Shown here one piece after another: positions 1,427-7,961 of a stretch of 58,478 nt of DNA (position 1 is its first letter; each line of letters starts with the position of its first letter). The notes below the pieces were generated by a model. It did no database searches. It was not told where the DNA came from and was given only the letters and a program-made list of their open reading frames with translations. The stretch covers positions 1 to 58,478 of IMG/VR virus record IMGVR_UViG_3300046010_007871; one strand, given 5' to 3'. Both the position numbers and the translations under genes were made by a program. Origin of the DNA: a virus. Lineage: Duplodnaviria; Caudoviricetes.

Positions 1427-1498
1427 CCCCTAGCGCGGCGACAGCAACGTGTCAAGCATCGCGAGAGACTTGACACGCTAGAGACGGTGCGCTAGATG
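1427..1498. promoter_or_regulatory. Back-to-back divergent sigma70-like promoters (XRE gene and bet)
   Basis: + strand TTGACA(1470)-17 nt-TAGATG; - strand TTGACA(1455-1450)-17 nt-TAGGGG; each lies 7 nt before an ATG. Confidence 0.7.
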
Positions 1499-1505
1499 TT
1501 CGCGC

Positions 1506-2375
1506 ATGTCCAATCTCGTCACAACCAACAGCCGTTTTGACACCGCACAAATCGACCTGATCAAGCGCACCATCGCGAAGGGCAGCACCGACGACGAGCT
1601 GACCCTGTTCGTCGAGCAATGTAAGCGCACTGGGTTAGACCCATTCGCGCGCCAAATCTACGCCGTCAAGCGGTGGGATAGCCGCGAGCGCCGCGAGGTC
1701 ATGTCCATTCAGGTCGGCATCGACGGGTTCCGACTCGTGGCCGACCGCACGGGCAAGTATCAGGGGCAACTCGGGCCGTTCTGGTGCGGCAAGGATGGCC
1801 AGTGGCGCGACGTGTGGCTCAGCGACGAGCCGCCCGCTGCGGCCAAGGTCGGCGTGCTGCGCTCGGACTTCCGCGAGCCGCTGTGGGCCGTGGCTAGGTT
1901 TAGCTCCTACGTGCAGACGAGCAAAGAGGGAGCGCCCACGCGCTTTTGGGCGCAGATGCCCGACCTGATGATCGCCAAGGTCGCCGAGGCCCTGGCATTG
2001 CGCAAGGCGTTCCCGCACGAGCTCTCTGGCCTCTACACCGCCGAGGAGATGGCGCAGGCCGAGAACGTGGCCCCCGCGCCAGTGCCTGTCGCTGCGCCTC
2101 GCCAGGTGGCCGCGCAGCGCCCGCAGCAGGCTCGCCCCGCGCCGGTGCCAGCGCCCGTGGTGCCAGACGCAGAGGTGGAGGCCGACGACGCCGACACGTT
2201 CAGCCCGGTGCTCGGGTTGTTGCACGACCTCACGCTTGTATCGAACGCCGAGGAGCTCGCGCTCGTGCGCGAGCAGCTCGTGGCGATCAAGCCGTCGTGC
2301 ACTCGCGAGCAGATCGCCAGCCTCGGGCAGGCATACAAGACCGCAGAGAAGCGCATCGCCGAGGTCCAGGCGTGA
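1506..2375 (+). CDS. bet: Phage recombination protein Bet (RecT/Redbeta ssDNA annealing)
   Basis: [58 protein letters not shown]. Confidence 0.95.
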
Positions 2376-2614
2376 GCGCATACGTGGAGCAAGCCATCGT
2401 AGTGGCAGACCACGAGGCCGAGGTGCGCCTCGTGATTGAGCCTGGATACATTGACGATCGCGACCGTGAATGCCTGCGATTCATGGTCACGATCAAAAAC
2501 TCCACGGGCGAGCTTCGCTTGCCTGTGCCAGATGCCAAGACACTCGCAAAGCGCCTGCTTGAGCAGGCTCTTGGCCATGCGGTTAAGCTGACCATCAGGC
2601 GGGGAGCGCGATGA
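2372..2614 (+). CDS. Hypothetical protein
   Basis: GTG start overlaps the bet stop (GTGA). Confidence 0.55.
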
Positions 2615-2699
2615 ATATTCTAGAAGCAAACAGGCTGCGCCGACCCCGAGGGAGGATGGCGGCGGGTGGACGTACGCCACGTGGTCGTGGGGTGGAAGG

Positions 2700-3308
2700 G
2701 TGGAAGGCGAAGCCGTGAAGCCTAACAAGCCGGTAGCGAGAAGAAAAGACTACCAGTTTGACGAGGGGTCGCACGGCGAGGCTGTCGAACTAATCCGTGC
2801 TTACCACTACGCGAAAGGGGCCGCGAACACCTCGACGGCGAGAACAATCATGCGGCGCGAGCAGCGAGCCGTAGGCGCCGCTCTTTGGATGCCACCGACA
2901 GCAGGAGCGGCTAAGGCCCTCGCCAAGAGGCACCTTGGAAGCGAAAACCTGCACAAGAAAGTGCTCGCTCTCTCTCGCCTCGTTGTAGTTCCAGGCGAAC
3001 CGCAAAATGCCGCTGGTATTCTGCTGGGGAGAACGACGAAAGACGTTGCGCGCGACGAGAGATGGGCGCTCCTCGTCACCTACGCGGACGAGGCGCAAGG
3101 ACACGAAGGAACGATCTACCGAGCCACAGGCTGGACATTTGACGGGTTCACCGAGCCGCAAATCGCTTGGCATTTGGACGGAAAACAGGTTTCCCGCCTC
3201 TCTACCAAATCAAGAACCTATGAAGAAATGAGAGCGATCGGAGCAACACAGTCGAAGTCAAGAAAGAGAAGGTTTTACAAGATTGTAGGGACGGTGCGCG
3301 ATGAATGA
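2700..3308 (+). CDS. Mom-like adenine modification protein (GNAT fold)
   Basis: YHY near the N-terminus, LSRLV, LVTYADEAQGHEGTIYRATGW and a C-terminal KRRF resemble Mu Mom-family proteins. Confidence 0.75.
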   Translation: MEGEAVKPNKPVARRKDYQFDEGSHGEAVELIRAYHYAKGAANTSTARTIMRREQRAVGAALWMPPTAGAAKALAKRHLGSENLHKKVLALSRLVVVPGEPQNAAGILLGRTTKDVARDERWALLVTYADEAQGHEGTIYRATGWTFDGFTEPQIAWHLDGKQVSRLSTKSRTYEEMRAIGATQSKSRKRRFYKIVGTVRDE

Positions 3309-3332
3309 TTGCATCGCAGAGGCGGTCGGAAA

Positions 3333-4478
3333 GTGAAGCTCCCCACAGCATCAAGCTTTGACCTCGCGTCGAAGTGCGCGCACCCGTGGACCAGCGGCAT
3401 CCCGTGGTCGCGCCCCGATGACCCATCGGTGTTCGCCTTTGGCAACGCCGTGCACGAAGCCGCCGAGCTCGCCGTTGGCTGCGGTGAGGTCGACCTCGTC
3501 AGGCTCGCGAGCAAGTACGAGCTGGGCCGAGACGACGTGCGACGCCTGGGCGCTACGGCGCGCAGCGCGTTCGACCGCGTCAACGCATACGCCGCCGAGG
3601 GCTGGCTCATGTTTGCCGAAGTCGCGGTGGCGTACCACGTCGGCAAGCGCACTGTGCGCCTGATCGACAAGTACACCCACCGGCAGGCCAACCAGGCCAA
3701 GCCTGGCGAGCTCATCGGAATCATCGACCTCGTGTGCGTGCGCCATGGACAGGTGCACGTGGCCGACTGGAAAACCGGCACGTGGCAGCGCGACGCTACG
3801 CCGGGGCTGCAGGTGCAGTTCGCCGCGATGGCAGTGGCCAAGCTCGTGGGCGCCGATAGCGCCTCGGGCTCGCTGCTCTACGTGGACGAGCGCGGCGTGC
3901 GCGAGGTGTCGGCCTCGTGGGAGTGCTGGGACCTCGACAGCACCGCCGACGTGCTGCGGCGCATCCATGAGACCACCAGCGGCGCGCCGACGCCGCCAGT
4001 CGCAGGAGACTGGTGCAAGCGCTGCAACATCCTGGGCAAGTGCTCGGCCACCGCCCTGGCCGTGCGCGACGTCGAGAGCGTGGCCACGAGCATCGCCACA
4101 GCCGAGGATGCCGCGCGCATCCACGAGATGATGCCCGCACTCGAAAAAACGCTAAAGCTCGCCCGCGAGCGCATCCGCGAGATGGCATCACGAGCGCCGA
4201 TCCCGCTCAGCAGCGGCAAGCGTCTCGTGGTGCAAGAGCGCACCCGCACGACGGTATCGGACCTCACGCCAGAGGCCGTGGCCTACCTCAATGCTCAGCA
4301 GCTACAGGCCGCGCTGGAGTTCTCGACGAGCGCCGCGGCCATCAAGCGCGTAGGTGGCGCAAAGGTCGAGCGACAAGTGATGGCGCACCTGCGCGAGATG
4401 GGATGCGTCAAGGAGAGCGTCTATACGACGCTCGCAGAGGTAGCAGATAAGGGAGGAAACAACGATGACACCGCGTGA
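3333..4478 (+). CDS. PD-(D/E)XK exonuclease (Cas4/AddB-like, DUF2800-like), probable Bet partner
   Basis: GNAVHE, AEVAVAY, GIIDLV, VADWKTG, LQVQF and the WCKRC...C Cys cluster. Confidence 0.85.
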   Translation: MKLPTASSFDLASKCAHPWTSGIPWSRPDDPSVFAFGNAVHEAAELAVGCGEVDLVRLASKYELGRDDVRRLGATARSAFDRVNAYAAEGWLMFAEVAVAYHVGKRTVRLIDKYTHRQANQAKPGELIGIIDLVCVRHGQVHVADWKTGTWQRDATPGLQVQFAAMAVAKLVGADSASGSLLYVDERGVREVSASWECWDLDSTADVLRRIHETTSGAPTPPVAGDWCKRCNILGKCSATALAVRDVESVATSIATAEDAARIHEMMPALEKTLKLARERIREMASRAPIPLSSGKRLVVQERTRTTVSDLTPEAVAYLNAQQLQAALEFSTSAAAIKRVGGAKVERQVMAHLREMGCVKESVYTTLAEVADKGGNNDDTA

Positions 4479-4650
4479 CTTCTATGTGCTCGCCCGCGAC
4501 GGCGAACGCTCCGAGCTGCTAGACCTGTTTGACGCGCTGGCAGAGAGCCGCAAGGTGCGCGGCGCTTGCGTCGTGCGTGCGAGCGACGGTAAGCGAATGA
4601 GCGAGACCGTGAGGGGCCACGTCATGCCACAGCGCCCCGAGGAGCGATGA
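4465..4650 (+). CDS. Hypothetical protein
   Basis: GGAGG RBS; overlaps the dUTPase start. Confidence 0.5.
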   Translation: MTPRDFYVLARDGERSELLDLFDALAESRKVRGACVVRASDGKRMSETVRGHVMPQRPEER

Positions 4651-5132
4651 CCGTGCCCTACTTGTCCGATCTCGACGTGTGCGTGCAGTTGACCAGGCCC
4701 ACGGGCACGCTGCCAGAGCGAGCCACCGATGGCGCCAGCGGCTACGACCTGCGCATGGCCGGATGGCGCTGGCCATGGTCGCAGGAGGTGCAGCACGGGC
4801 ACCTAATCCTCGACGCAGGCGAGCGAGCGCTAGTGCTCACCGGCCTCGCCATGTCGCTCTCGGAGGGCTGGGAGGCGCAGATCCGTGGGCGTAGCGGGCT
4901 CGCGCTAAAGCACGGGCTACAGGTCGCCTTCGGCACGATCGACAGCGACTATCGAGGCGAGGTAGGCGTGATCGTCTACAACGTCGGCGACCGCATCACG
5001 CTTCGGCCTGGCGACCGCATCGCGCAGATGGTGTTCGCTCGCGTGCCTCGCGTGCGGCTGCTCGAGGTGGCAGAGCTCACGAGCACCACCAACCGCGGCG
5101 TCGGTGGCTTCGGCTCCACGGGGCAGTCGTGA
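4647..5132 (+). CDS. dut: dUTPase (trimeric)
   Basis: ASGYDL, RSGLA, GTIDSDYRGE, RIAQ, RGVGGFGSTG. Confidence 0.97.
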   Translation: MTVPYLSDLDVCVQLTRPTGTLPERATDGASGYDLRMAGWRWPWSQEVQHGHLILDAGERALVLTGLAMSLSEGWEAQIRGRSGLALKHGLQVAFGTIDSDYRGEVGVIVYNVGDRITLRPGDRIAQMVFARVPRVRLLEVAELTSTTNRGVGGFGSTGQS

Positions 5133-5374
5133 CAACCTACGCTCGCATGATGCGAGATCTACTCGGAACCGAAAAGCGCCCAACTCGACGACAAGGATCC
5201 ATGACGCCCACCCACGACGAGGAGATGGCCCACGAGCGCGCCTACTGGCACGAGCGCATCGTCGAGGCCCTGCAGCGCGTGCGTCAACTCGACGCCGACC
5301 TGACAGCCGCGCGCGACGACAACAAGCGGCTCGTGGCCGAGCTGCGCGAGCTGCGCGAAAGGCTGCCCAGATGA
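5129..5374 (+). CDS. Hypothetical coiled-coil protein
   Basis: Overlaps both neighbours; heptad-like C-terminus. Confidence 0.55.
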   Translation: MTTYARMMRDLLGTEKRPTRRQGSMTPTHDEEMAHERAYWHERIVEALQRVRQLDADLTAARDDNKRLVAELRELRERLPR

Positions 5375-7146
5375 TCCAGCTGCACCACGGAGACTGTCTA
5401 GACGTGCTCCGCACCATGCCAGACGCCAGCGTCGACGCCATCGTGACCGACCCTCCGTACGGCCTGCGCTTCATGGGGAAGAAGTGGGATTACGACGTGC
5501 CCACGACAGAGGTGTGGGCCGAGTGCCTGCGGGTGCTCAAGCCTGGCGGGCACCTGCTCGCGTTCGCAGGCACCAGGACGCAGCACCGGATGGCGGTGCG
5601 GATTGAGGATGCAGGGTTCGAGATTAGAGATCTGATCATGTATTGCTACGGGTCAGGATTTCCAAAAAGTACAGACATATCGCGGCGCATTGATTTAGAA
5701 GAGCAAAAAAGATGGCTTGACGTTTCCAAGGCGCTTGACAACTTGGAAACTGCGGCCATAATGGAAGCATGGAAAGACCACTCAAAAGCTGCGAGCACTG
5801 CGGGGCTCTCATTCGCAAAGAGCCCAACCGCAACTGGAATCAGTACGCCAAAAAGCGGTTTTGCTCCCGAGCCTGTTCTGCTGCAAGCCGATCAAGAAAG
5901 CAGCGATGCACTTGCGCTGGTTGCGGAGTTGAGTTTCAAAGAAGCCCATCTCACGTCCAAAGCGGAGATCAATTCTGCTCCCATGCCTGCCGCCGCAAAC
6001 GAATCACAAGACCCTGTGAAGTGTGCGGAACACTCACTGAAAAGATCCAATGCAATATCTACGAACGCTGGTATTGCTCAATGCGCTGTCAAGGAATGGC
6101 CAAGCGCAAGCATGGGGGGCAATCTCAAGGCCGTCGAAGCCCTGAGGATCTGGCTTGGAAGCAAGCCGTCATCAATGCAGGCAGTTACAAATGCGCTATG
6201 TGCGGTACTGACCGCCGACTTGAAGCACATCACGTTAAGCCAATCAAAGACTTTCCAGAGCTTCGACACGACACGTCAAACGGCTTGTGCGTCTGCCATC
6301 AGTGTCACTATTACGGAATCCATGGCGGAAAGCCTAATCTCATTCACGGTCGATACGCTAAGAAAACAAGCGATTGACCGGGCGGCAGGAGCGGAGCGGG
6401 AAGTCACCGCCCCCGCCACCGACGCCGCTCGCCGATGGCAAGGCTGGGGCACCGCGCTCAAGCCCGCCCTGGAGCCGATCACCGTGGCCCGCAAGCCCCT
6501 GGAGGGCACCGTGGCCGCCAACGTGCTGCAGTGGGGAACTGGTGGGATCAACGTGGACGGGTGCAGAGTGGGCACCGACCTCATCACCCAGCACGGGCGA
6601 GGAGACAGCGCGAATATTGCTATGTCTGGGCGAAACTACGCTGAAGAAGCTGGGCGCAAGTGGACCGGTCGCTGGCCCGCCAACCTGATCCATGACGGCA
6701 GCGAGGAGGTGGTGGGGTTGTTTCCGCAGGGACGCAGTAGTGGTATATATTCTCCGACTGACCACTCTCAAGGCAAACGTGCAAAATGGGTAATAAACTT
6801 CGGCGGAATGGGGGTCCCCTCTGTTATGTATTCCGACAGCGGCAGCGCCGCCCGCTTCTTCTACACCGCAAAGGCCGATGCGACAGACCGAAACGATGGG
6901 CTCTCACCAGGCGAACGCAATAAGCACCCAACGGTCAAGCCGGTTGACCTGATGTGCTACTTGTGCCGACTCGTGACGCCGCCAGGTGGCATCGTGCTCG
7001 ACCCATTCATGGGCAGTGGCAGCACCGGCAAGGCATGCGTGACTGAGGGGTTCAGCTTCATCGGAATCGAGCGAGACGCCGACAGTTTCGCCACCGCGCA
7101 AGCGCGCGTGGTATCGCCGATGCCACTGTTCAAGGATGTGCTGTGA
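5371..7146 (+). CDS. DNA N6-adenine/N4-cytosine methyltransferase (beta class) with a large in-frame insertion
   Basis: HGDCL, VTDPPY, YGSGFPKS, GWGTALKPA, HPTVKP, LDPFMGSGSTG; ATG 5371 overlaps the upstream stop. Confidence 0.92.
   Translation: MIQLHHGDCLDVLRTMPDASVDAIVTDPPYGLRFMGKKWDYDVPTTEVWAECLRVLKPGGHLLAFAGTRTQHRMAVRIEDAGFEIRDLIMYCYGSGFPKSTDISRRIDLEEQKRWLDVSKALDNLETAAIMEAWKDHSKAASTAGLSFAKSPTATGISTPKSGFAPEPVLLQADQESSDALALVAELSFKEAHLTSKAEINSAPMPAAANESQDPVKCAEHSLKRSNAISTNAGIAQCAVKEWPSASMGGNLKAVEALRIWLGSKPSSMQAVTNALCAVLTADLKHITLSQSKTFQSFDTTRQTACASAISVTITESMAESLISFTVDTLRKQAIDRAAGAEREVTAPATDAARRWQGWGTALKPALEPITVARKPLEGTVAANVLQWGTGGINVDGCRVGTDLITQHGRGDSANIAMSGRNYAEEAGRKWTGRWPANLIHDGSEEVVGLFPQGRSSGIYSPTDHSQGKRAKWVINFGGMGVPSVMYSDSGSAARFFYTAKADATDRNDGLSPGERNKHPTVKPVDLMCYLCRLVTPPGGIVLDPFMGSGSTGKACVTEGFSFIGIERDADSFATAQARVVSPMPLFKDVL
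5769..6377 (+). CDS. HNH endonuclease with three Cys zinc-finger repeats, nested out of frame inside the methyltransferase
   Basis: CxxCG...(F/Y)CSxxC three times, then CAMCG-LEAHHVKP-NGLCVCHQCH. Confidence 0.85.
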   Translation: MERPLKSCEHCGALIRKEPNRNWNQYAKKRFCSRACSAASRSRKQRCTCAGCGVEFQRSPSHVQSGDQFCSHACRRKRITRPCEVCGTLTEKIQCNIYERWYCSMRCQGMAKRKHGGQSQGRRSPEDLAWKQAVINAGSYKCAMCGTDRRLEAHHVKPIKDFPELRHDTSNGLCVCHQCHYYGIHGGKPNLIHGRYAKKTSD

Positions 7147-7961
7147 TGACCTACGCCGCACGCATTCTTGCCGACAGTCTCGCGCCGAGTGGCGTGCGGC
7201 TCACCACGTTTGAGGTCACGTTCCCGCGCTTCATCCTGGCCGAGTGGAACACGCACCGCATGCTCTCGCGCAACGCTGCGAGCTCGCGCGCCGTGCCAGT
7301 GCGCAAGCTGCTCGAGCAGGTCGAGACCGAGCCCTTCGTGCCCGAGTACTGGGGAGCCAACAGGCCAGGCATGCAGGCCACCGAGGAGCTACCCGAGCGC
7401 GACGCAGCAGACGCTCGCGCCACGTGGCTACAGGCTCGCGACGCAGCGTGCGACCACGCCCGAGTCTTGATGAGCCTCGGCGCGCACAAGCAGCTCGCAA
7501 ACAGGCTGCTCGAGCCGTTCTTGTGGTGCACTGTCATCGTCAGCGCCACCACGTGGGACAACCTATTCACCCTGCGATGCCACGCCGACGCACAGCCAGA
7601 GTTCCGGCGCATCGCATGCATGATGCGCGACGAGCTTGGCACATCCACGCCACGAGCACTCGCCATCGGCGACTGGCACTTGCCGCTCGCGCCAGACGTC
7701 GACGAGCTGCAGGCCGAGGGCTACACCATCGACGAGCGCGCGCGCATCAGCGCCGCCAGGTGCGCTCGCGTGAGCTATCTTACCCACGATGGCAAGCGCG
7801 TGCCTGCCACCGACCTAGAGCTCGCGCGCAGGCTCCTCGAGGCTGGCCACATGAGCCCGTTCGAGCACGTTGCGCAGCCCAGCAGCCAAGAGCACACGCG
7901 CAGCGGCAACTTCCACGGCTGGTATCAATACCGAAAGCGCCTCGAAAGCCGCGCTTTGTAA
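7143..7961 (+). CDS. thyX: FAD-dependent thymidylate synthase
   Basis: NTHRMLSRNAASSRA, HKQLANRLLEPF, LRCHADAQPE, ARCARVSY, HMSPFEH. Confidence 0.93.
   Translation: MMTYAARILADSLAPSGVRLTTFEVTFPRFILAEWNTHRMLSRNAASSRAVPVRKLLEQVETEPFVPEYWGANRPGMQATEELPERDAADARATWLQARDAACDHARVLMSLGAHKQLANRLLEPFLWCTVIVSATTWDNLFTLRCHADAQPEFRRIACMMRDELGTSTPRALAIGDWHLPLAPDVDELQAEGYTIDERARISAARCARVSYLTHDGKRVPATDLELARRLLEAGHMSPFEHVAQPSSQEHTRSGNFHGWYQYRKRLESRAL

Follow-up and report, generated by a model that had tools for sequence, protein, structure and literature searches.

The window analysed in this work, the whole of a viral contig of 58,478 bp (IMGVR_UViG_3300046010_007871), carries on its plus strand a gene for a beta-class N6/N4 DNA methyltransferase (MTase; 5371..7146) with an in-frame insert of 684 nt (228 codons; 5695..6378), and a gene for an HNH endonuclease (5769..6377) is hidden inside this insert in another frame of the same strand. 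We consider it probable that the insert is a homing cassette independent of splicing, that is, an HNH gene inserted in frame in a variable surface loop of a phage beta-class MTase. In the mechanism proposed, the cassette would have been placed between ...SKAID and KAAGAEREV... of the MTase, and ribosomes translating the MTase would read straight across it, one base downstream of the HNH frame, adding a partly disordered spacer of 228 residues, as the pattern of selection suggests; since the host frame is kept free of stops, the C-terminal half of the protein, which binds S-adenosylmethionine (AdoMet), would still be made. The HNH would be produced separately, from a sigma70-type promoter of its own lying in MTase codons and on a leaderless mRNA, as the sequence ahead of its start codon suggests. 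It would then cut or nick insert-free MTase alleles of co-infecting phages, as expected from the distribution of the cassette and the homing behaviour of HNH enzymes, and recombinational repair would copy the cassette in, together with a short tract of the flanking gene.

Selection on the host reading frame

The MTase open reading frame (ORF), of 591 aa, runs without a stop from the ATG at 5371 to the TGA at 7146, insert included (plus strand; PF01555, E 1.4e-27). The HNH ORF (plus strand, 202 aa) lies wholly inside it, shifted one base upstream with respect to the MTase frame, and codes for three Cys4 zinc-ribbon modules followed by an HNH core (CAMCG...LEAHH...NG...CHQCH); it matched PF13391 (3e-5), PF01844 (1.8e-4) and phrog_1271 (5.6e-22). 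Both ORFs thus agree with the original prediction, made on this DNA before any database search, of about 230 extra stop-free codons in the MTase frame and an intact zinc-finger HNH nuclease in another one. A search of solved structures with the HNH returned only chance-level matches to zinc fingers (E ~0.09). The start ATG was present in 14/14 aligned copies and the catalytic motif CxxC...LExHH...N...CxxCH, taken as a strict pattern, in 13 of the 14 distinct ones; in homologues, the HNH stop is reached either within the final codons of the insert or a few codons into the downstream MTase part.

Dinucleotide shuffles of the insert left the MTase frame free of stops in one of 5000 cases (mean 7.6 stops), and mononucleotide shuffles in none of 20000. 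When the HNH ORF of the window alone was shuffled by synonymous codons, a conservative null that preserves the HNH protein and its already biased codon use, 10% of the shuffles were stop-free (P = 0.10). The chance estimate for the window alone therefore depends on the null, and the decisive evidence is comparative.

Two samples of homologous loci were compared. The first came from a search with HNH peptides, which was blind to the MTase frame; it gave 14 viral contigs and, with Escherichia phage BUCT618 and the window, 16 loci comprising 14 distinct sequences with 58-95% nucleotide identity in the insert. The MTase frame was open across the entire HNH gene in all 16 loci (14/14 distinct sequences), within ORFs of 466-745 codons, and the third frame carried 8-26 stops. 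Under synonymous shuffling the probability of finding no stop ranged from 0.006 to 0.10 per sequence. The second sample consisted of two loci from genome contigs and 55 from metagenome contigs, of which 51 were new and distinct after six repeats had been dropped, 42 of them with a full-length HNH match. Among these 42, the frame was open in 38 and, if TGA is read as Gly, also in L086 and L091; L071 presented one TAG, and L083 was not nested. In total, 54 of 55 distinct nested full-length copies were open in the MTase frame (14/14 in the first sample and 40/41 in the second). A test for stop depletion had been set beforehand, and the outcome that would have refuted the proposal, frequent MTase-frame stops in homologous inserts, did not occur. 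Judged from these sequences, the open host frame is selected and not due to chance, and the same comparison supports the earlier proposal of a homing-type HNH that would be dual-coded in its host gene instead of being spliced.

Three metagenome contigs with a nested cassette (L086, L091, and L095) showed in-frame "stops" in MTase and HNH that were in every case TGA at a conserved Gly; with table 25 both ORFs are open in all three. In these contigs TGA is probably a Gly codon.

A free-standing homologue of the HNH (61% identity) was found in L083 (426-1268), just upstream of the start of an MTase gene. Six stops interrupt the frame that starts one base downstream of this HNH, and one TGA is found at an HNH Cys position. 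The locus serves as a natural control and is possibly a source or sink form of the cassette. Looser controls were provided by the ORFs of distant HNH-core matches (L037-L039, genomic context aside), with 6-11 stops in the corresponding frame, and by L035, a relative of the HNH of the published ShiLan domain compared below, with three. The matches L037-L039 were all that a scan of viral sequences for natural controls with P0021, a 40%-identical HNH, gave.

That the open frame arose without selection, from the codon usage and amino-acid composition of the HNH, is extremely improbable. Stops are indeed intrinsically scarce one base downstream of the HNH frame (mean 1.6-3.2 after shuffling vs. 9.5-25 in the other frame), in keeping with the 10% of stop-free synonymous shuffles in the window. 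However, 54/55 nested copies remain open at 58-95% identity, the per-sequence probabilities multiply to well below 1e-10 even over about eight deep lineages, and the free-standing homologue has its six stops.

Constraint differed markedly between the two frames. Along the overlap, column entropy was highest at the wobble position of the HNH (0.92 bits vs. 0.50 and 0.59), and amino-acid identity, averaged over pairs, was 0.67 for the HNH and 0.47 for the MTase frame, the HNH being higher in 91/91 pairs. Identity in the MTase frame was practically that of the unused third frame (0.469 vs. 0.466; MTase higher in 51/91 pairs), so that no constraint on the host frame was detected in the overlap beyond the absence of stops, and the MTase-frame peptide there looks, from these values, like a stop-free spacer. 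The MTase-frame peptide of the whole insert gave no Pfam or PHROG family match, and AlphaFold2 predicted in it helices of moderate confidence at residues 103-149 (pLDDT ~75) and 253-340 (63-75) with disorder (<50) at 147-176 and 191-247. The pattern flips in the 25 codons ahead of the HNH ATG, where the third position of the MTase frame was the most variable (1.18 vs. 0.80 and 0.67) and indels were whole codons; this codon pattern fits translation in the MTase frame, though a promoter also acts as a constraint on the same stretch. The idea of dual coding in a tolerant loop therefore has to be qualified: the host frame is kept open and bears no splicing signature, but the coding is asymmetric, since the MTase-frame peptide is unconserved.

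Insertion site, methylase function and splicing

Alignment with insert-free homologues set the boundaries of the insert at 5695 and 6378. The extra segment sits between YGSGFPKS and AIDRAAGAEREV in the MTase frame; insert-free alleles read YGSGFPKSLDVSKAIDKAAGAEREV at the insertion site, GFPKSLDVSKAIDKAAGAEREV being the peptide of an insert-free allele, and the window presents YGSGFPKSTDISRRID, then the 228 codons, then RAAGAEREV. The boundary can shift by a few bases because ATTGA is present at both ends. The insert was AT-richer than its surroundings, as had been claimed, with a GC content of 0.51 overall (0.46-0.55 along the insert) vs. 0.65-0.70 around it and about 0.66 for the genome. The low-GC tract begins some 70 nt ahead of the insert, the drop starting from about 5600.

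The flanking peptide had been said to occur in three degenerate copies that pointed to a duplication at the insertion site. All three exist and are retained in the 14 distinct homologues: TDISRRID on the left (5671..5694, plus strand), which matches LDVSKAID of insert-free alleles; LDVSKALD in the middle (5716-5739), overlapping the -35 box TTGACA at 5735-5740; and KQAID on the right (6364..6378, plus strand), with the HNH stop TGA (6375-6377) inside. The outer two form a real, degenerate flank repeat, as in the ShiLan domain. The middle copy more likely belongs to the HNH promoter than to a target-site duplication, since its LDN codons, CTT GAC AAC, make up the -35 box.

The content of the site was compared in an alignment of the window with 94 of its 120 best-listed MTase relatives, from which the BUCT618 protein and matches of odd length or coverage were excluded. 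The site held the cassette in 61 of the 95 rows (227-279 residues), nothing in 26, and an in-frame segment of 72-118 residues in eight; no frequencies can be derived from these rows because the sample was ranked by similarity to an insert-bearing query. Most of the eight in-frame segments resemble one another and the extra segment of phage MooMoo. From this alignment the insertion site is a naturally variable loop, which bears out the tolerance attributed to it, the same position being found empty, with an in-frame domain of about 75 aa, or with the cassette.

Segments of about 75 residues at KAIDK|...|AEREV were observed in P0062, P0087, P0113, P0119, P0127, P0136, and L019 (MooMoo); they contain no hidden ORF and are possibly helix-turn-helix-like. 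MooMoo, considered as a carrier of the ShiLan domain, was discarded, as its extra segment is an ordinary in-frame domain without HNH. P0058 and P0079 were likewise discarded as insert-free alleles, being truncated insert-bearing proteins.

The order of the MTase motifs is that of the beta class, motif IV preceding motif I (DPPYG at residues 27-31 and DPFMGSGSTG at 544-553). An AlphaFold2 model of the window MTase based on the 95-row alignment had a mean pLDDT of 68 and a pTM of 0.60, with values of 90-98 in the MTase core. The best Foldseek matches of this model were M.BceJIV, CcrM, and M.RsrI, the target-normalised TM-score being about 0.7 for M.BceJIV and M1.HpyAVI and 0.5-0.6 for CcrM and RsrI. 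GFPKS aligns by sequence with the NPMPRN loop of DpnA, which places the insert close to a conserved loop.

This proximity bears on another explanation, according to which the cassette inactivated the MTase and the frame is open only to avoid polarity on, or to couple to, downstream genes. The downstream part of the MTase (6379..7146, plus strand, RAAGAEREV to the end) is followed by thyX (plus strand, from 7143, starting at GTG 7143 or ATG 7146; PF02511, Thy1), whose start overlaps the MTase stop (TGA 7144-7146) in TGATG at 7144-7148; this arrangement suggests translational coupling. The lack of sequence constraint on the host-frame peptide and the position of the insertion, adjoining a conserved loop near the active site, point in the same direction, and the main text of PMC11855218 describes the methylase as dispensable in relatives. 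Against inactivation, DPPY, GFPK, HPTVKP, and DPFxGSG stay near-invariant in the flanking parts of insert-bearing copies, in over 60 diverged sequences; in-frame segments of 72-118 residues occur naturally in this loop; and the MTase core is intact in the AlphaFold2 model. We regard this explanation as unlikely.

HNH genes are common in phage group I introns, and the insert might be a group I or other self-splicing intron carrying an HNH homing gene, the open MTase frame being incidental. A U precedes the left boundary (gaT at 5694), ORF-bearing introns are poorly detected by Rfam models, and the flank repeat resembles a possible guide-sequence signature discussed in the main text of PMC11855218. 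Nevertheless, a permissive Rfam scan of 5200-6900 (E up to 10) returned no intron family, only unrelated matches at chance level. Just 74 nt precede the HNH ORF, which extends to the last bases of the insert, so that the 3' core of a ribozyme would be entirely coding. The insert and all indels are multiples of three, the part before the ATG displays the codon periodicity of the MTase frame, and splicing would not require 54/55 nested full-length copies to be stop-free. An intron is thus very unlikely.

Removal at the protein level, by an unusual intein or another self-removing segment with an out-of-frame endonuclease, is likewise highly improbable. The insert is in frame and at a conserved site, true inteins are found 10 codons upstream in the same family (YG|C...N|SGFPKS, in StAnnes, Willsammy, and ShiLan), and inteins with out-of-frame endonucleases exist according to a preprint (10.1101/2025.01.02.630785), one case having been seen here in L036. 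On the other hand, Pfam gave no intein or Hint family for the insert. This begins with LEEQ (Leu, or Ile/Asp if the boundary is slid) and ends in ID instead of HN, and the next residue is Arg/Lys and not Cys/Ser/Thr. A conserved splicing fold cannot be reconciled with a host-frame peptide whose conservation does not exceed that of an unused frame. The absence of intein and intron hallmarks noticed earlier is therefore upheld by the Rfam, Pfam, and PHROG scans, none of which gave a relevant match. The true inteins located 10 codons upstream in relatives mark this conserved stretch as a hot spot of homing elements.

The intein of L036 lies in a T4-type terminase large-subunit ORF (1433-3718) and reads CFTGDTLV...VSN|C, with an Intein_splicing match (E 3.7e-6) below the Pfam cut-off. 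An out-of-frame HNH_3 ORF (2938-3579, E 1.6e-17) occupies its middle, where the host frame has no stops and the other frame 21.

Probable expression and mobility of the HNH gene

A sigma70-type promoter, TTGACA-16-CATAAT, was found inside the MTase codons (5735..5762, plus strand), with 11/12 matches to the consensus; shuffles of the region gave on average 0.3 sites in the same scan. Its -10 hexamer ends 6 nt ahead of the A of the HNH ATG at 5769, and no usefully placed Shine-Dalgarno sequence precedes this ATG in the window. Transcription from sigma70 promoters usually starts at this distance past the -10 hexamer. The start would thus be expected at the A of the ATG or beside it, and the HNH is likely to be made from a leaderless mRNA arising inside the MTase gene. 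Among the 55 homologous copies that could be scored in fixed register (two further copies could not), the promoter had at least 10/12 matches in 38, at least 11/12 in 35, and a perfect consensus in 19.

A -1 frameshift at the A-run 5704-5712, considered as a way into the HNH frame, was ruled out by the stop at 5736-5738 in that frame. No RNA run containing the region was listed. Two runs flagged "RNA?" covered only small shares, and one of them, X19, looks like DNA from other MTase alleles.

The contig was found in lake-water metagenome runs from 2020-2025, one of which (X1) gave a contig of 906 nt identical to the window at 5584-6489. Other MTase alleles of the same lake runs cease to match the window at 5624 (loose ends), and comparison of the window with L005 showed an identity that climbs from 0.75 to 0.84-0.96 towards the junction and falls right after GAEREV. 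Both observations fit a short tract of co-conversion, and the low-GC end of the upstream MTase part (5625..5694, plus strand) was probably co-converted with the insert.

Identity of the insert and of the flanks was in conflict between pairs. Thus, the window and L005 shared 0.92 in the insert vs. 0.75 and 0.69 in the flanks, and L006 and L008 shared 0.78 vs. 0.56 and 0.45; the opposite case was represented by the window and L008 (0.72 in the insert, 0.74 and 0.84 in the flanks). On a FastTree phylogeny of 87 labelled rows, built without the insert and the adjoining columns of the variable loop, presence or absence of the insert required 12 changes, compared to 22.5 on average and 16 at minimum with shuffled labels. 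Well-supported branches force at least five of these changes, FastTree support being weak evidence for single branches; the strongly supported clade of six rows that contains the window comprises three insert-bearing rows, one free row, and two others. Taken together, the changes on the tree and the conflict between insert and flanks gave a disjunct, homing-like distribution of the cassette among MTase alleles. The MTase-frame peptide of the insert matched 98 representatives of 50%-identity clusters that read through it (80 at E up to 1e-10), mostly at residues ~110-380 of proteins of 500-900 aa. An insert-free allele of the window's own phage was searched for in four lake runs, and only a weak joint from 5595 to 6442 was obtained (one contig, side 25), which was rejected as unusable. 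From the distribution of the cassette we infer that the HNH cuts or nicks insert-free alleles.

In addition to the window-alone probability of 0.10, several points weigh against the proposed homing cassette. A single TAG interrupts the MTase frame of the nested copy L071, and this locus and P0012 are examples of broken or frameshifted copies. In 17 of the 55 copies, BUCT618 included (7/12), the promoter is weak or missing, so that other routes to HNH expression must exist. The variable loop that follows AGAEREV in relatives is missing from the window MTase. An addition of 228 residues just after the GFPKS loop might, from its position, impair methylation, and the open frame could be kept for translation of genes downstream and not for MTase activity.

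Concerning these departures, P0012, a protein from a short contig, is a frameshifted or fused form that passes from the N-terminal part of the MTase, through the beginning of the insert, into the HNH frame. P0027, also from a short contig, is insert-free at the window's site, yet ends in the C-terminal peptide of the HNH after ...ECFPE, which hints at another insertion site or a chimeric contig. As for the loop, AGAEREV is directly joined to TAPATDAA in the window MTase (6379-6420), whereas all aligned relatives have a variable loop of 25-45 residues at this position, still present in P0030, which is 95% identical to the window in the kept columns.

A second stretch of lower GC (0.55-0.56) occurs at 6600-6850, in the variable C-terminal region of the MTase. 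Many joints in the lake runs skip 132-175 nt (from 6494-6534 to ~6670), and alleles thus differ by an indel there. In L011 a second out-of-frame HNH-like ORF (4276-4704, 142 aa, without Pfam match at E up to 0.001) was seen inside the same MTase ORF (2582-4813), following ...ASRFF, a third site; here too the host frame is shifted one base downstream. This MTase ORF is cut short and has no C-terminal AdoMet motifs. Upstream of the window MTase lie a PD-(D/E)XK nuclease gene (3309-4478), a dUTPase gene (4647-5132), and a small ORF.

Comparison with known systems

The usual view is that a homing endonuclease can spare the gene it invades only with the help of an intron, an intein, or an intergenic position. 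The element of the window supports a different route, in which the sequence of the nuclease gene lets the invaded reading frame run across it without meeting a stop.

The principle of a hidden out-of-frame HNH was already published in 2025 for the ShiLan domain (Arsenault, Gosselin and Gogarten 2025, Genes 16:178, PMC11855218), described in its main text as an in-frame insert of 202 codons in mycobacteriophage methylases which hides an HNH of 195 aa in another frame, has no intron or intein signature, and is distributed as expected from homing. The two elements occupy the same MTase family (ShiLan gp65 aligns with the window MTase) and share many traits. In each, an in-frame insert of about 200-230 codons leaves the host frame free of stops and contains a complete HNH ORF, about 200 aa long, whose frame precedes that of the host by one base. 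The HNH stop falls within the final bases of the insert, where the flanking peptide recurs in degenerate form. Both lack intron or intein signatures and are sporadically distributed.

They differ, however, in site and in nuclease. The insert of ShiLan gp65 follows ALKPxxE (ALKPSYE), about 55 residues downstream, and this protein has an uninterrupted SKAIDKAAGAEREV at the window's site. The nuclease belongs to Pfam HNH_3 in the ShiLan type and to HNH/HNH_2 in the window. No mycobacteriophage was present among 30 tblastn matches of the window HNH, the match in the phage collection being BUCT618, with 68.7% identity. Copies of the window lineage came from the lake, other metagenomes, and an E. 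coli phage and not from Mycobacterium phages. Cylindrospermopsis phage Cr-LKS3 hides, at the ShiLan site, an HNH that shares 49-50% identity with those of ShiLan, Mantra, and Starcevich. The window has a consensus promoter 6 nt before the ATG and no Shine-Dalgarno sequence, in contrast with the ShiLan-type copies inspected, which have TATAAT 36 nt upstream and GGAGG before the start. The different site and the different HNH lineage thus set the window element apart as a lineage of its own, located at a second site within this gene family.

The main text of PMC11855218 contains no promoter analysis, no mention of Escherichia, and no non-actinobacterial example by name, and its supplements may list more; a literature search on the ShiLan domain and BUCT618 found no further paper on such elements. 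What is added here to the 2025 description is quantitative evidence of selection against stops, and nothing more, on the host frame; another lineage, far larger and wider in distribution, which occupies a second site in this methyltransferase; and the proposal of an internal consensus promoter that would give a leaderless HNH mRNA. Gene callers miss such hidden HNH genes, and the methylases are annotated as single long proteins. The relative in BUCT618 makes the model directly testable in a phage of E. coli.

ShiLan-type inserts outside mycobacteriophages (L002, L020-L032) have TATAAT 36 nt and GGAGG 7 nt upstream of the HNH ATG. In ShiLan itself (L040:2160-2203), the counterpart of that ATG in the alignment is an in-frame GTG at 2201, with GGAGG 4 nt ahead of it. 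Both the start published for the ShiLan HNH and the statement in PMC11855218 that it has no detectable ribosome-binding site may have to be reconsidered. Within this lineage, 14/15 MTase-embedded loci were fully open, L026 having one MTase-frame stop at about 2969; the HNH was truncated in L025 and L028 with the host frame open. L025, L026, and L028 look like stages of decay.

The HNH homing endonucleases of group I introns (I-HmuI, I-PfoP3I) resemble that of the window in targeting a conserved site of a phage gene, with a spread by homing that is inferred; there the ribozyme restores the host mRNA, whereas the window has neither the signal nor the space for one. In phage T4, mobA and the ribosomal-bypass cassette of gene 60, reportedly described by Bonocora and co-workers in 2011, are said to form a split gene with a hop of 50 nt. 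This is again a homing cassette with its own device to limit damage to the host gene at translation, but the window would be read through a stop-free alternate frame instead of being hopped over. Free-standing homing endonucleases (T4 seg, mob) differ in that the window HNH is inside its host ORF, although a free-standing relative exists in L083.

The inteins with an out-of-frame endonuclease described in the preprint (10.1101/2025.01.02.630785) also have the nuclease in another frame and the host frame open; according to that source the insert is removed by protein splicing, whereas the window has no splicing domain. Pacc40 gp60, as portrayed in the main text of PMC11855218, holds a second out-of-frame HNH-like endonuclease in an in-frame insert of a phage methylase, which indicates that the kind includes unrelated lineages. 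Set beside the window by description only, it is a divergent methylase-helicase fusion with an ORF of 160 aa.

The host frame lay one base downstream of the nuclease frame in 4/4 independent nestings seen. The window lineage comprises at least 80 clusters at 50% identity and extends to contigs that are open only if TGA is Gly, and the same out-of-frame nesting occurs in at least one terminase intein (L036). Such cassettes may perhaps represent, a generalization that we hold tentatively and with somewhat less than even confidence, a third general solution beside introns and inteins, in which the host frame has a fixed position, the host-frame peptide is purely an anti-stop spacer, and a hidden promoter gives a leaderless mRNA for the nuclease.

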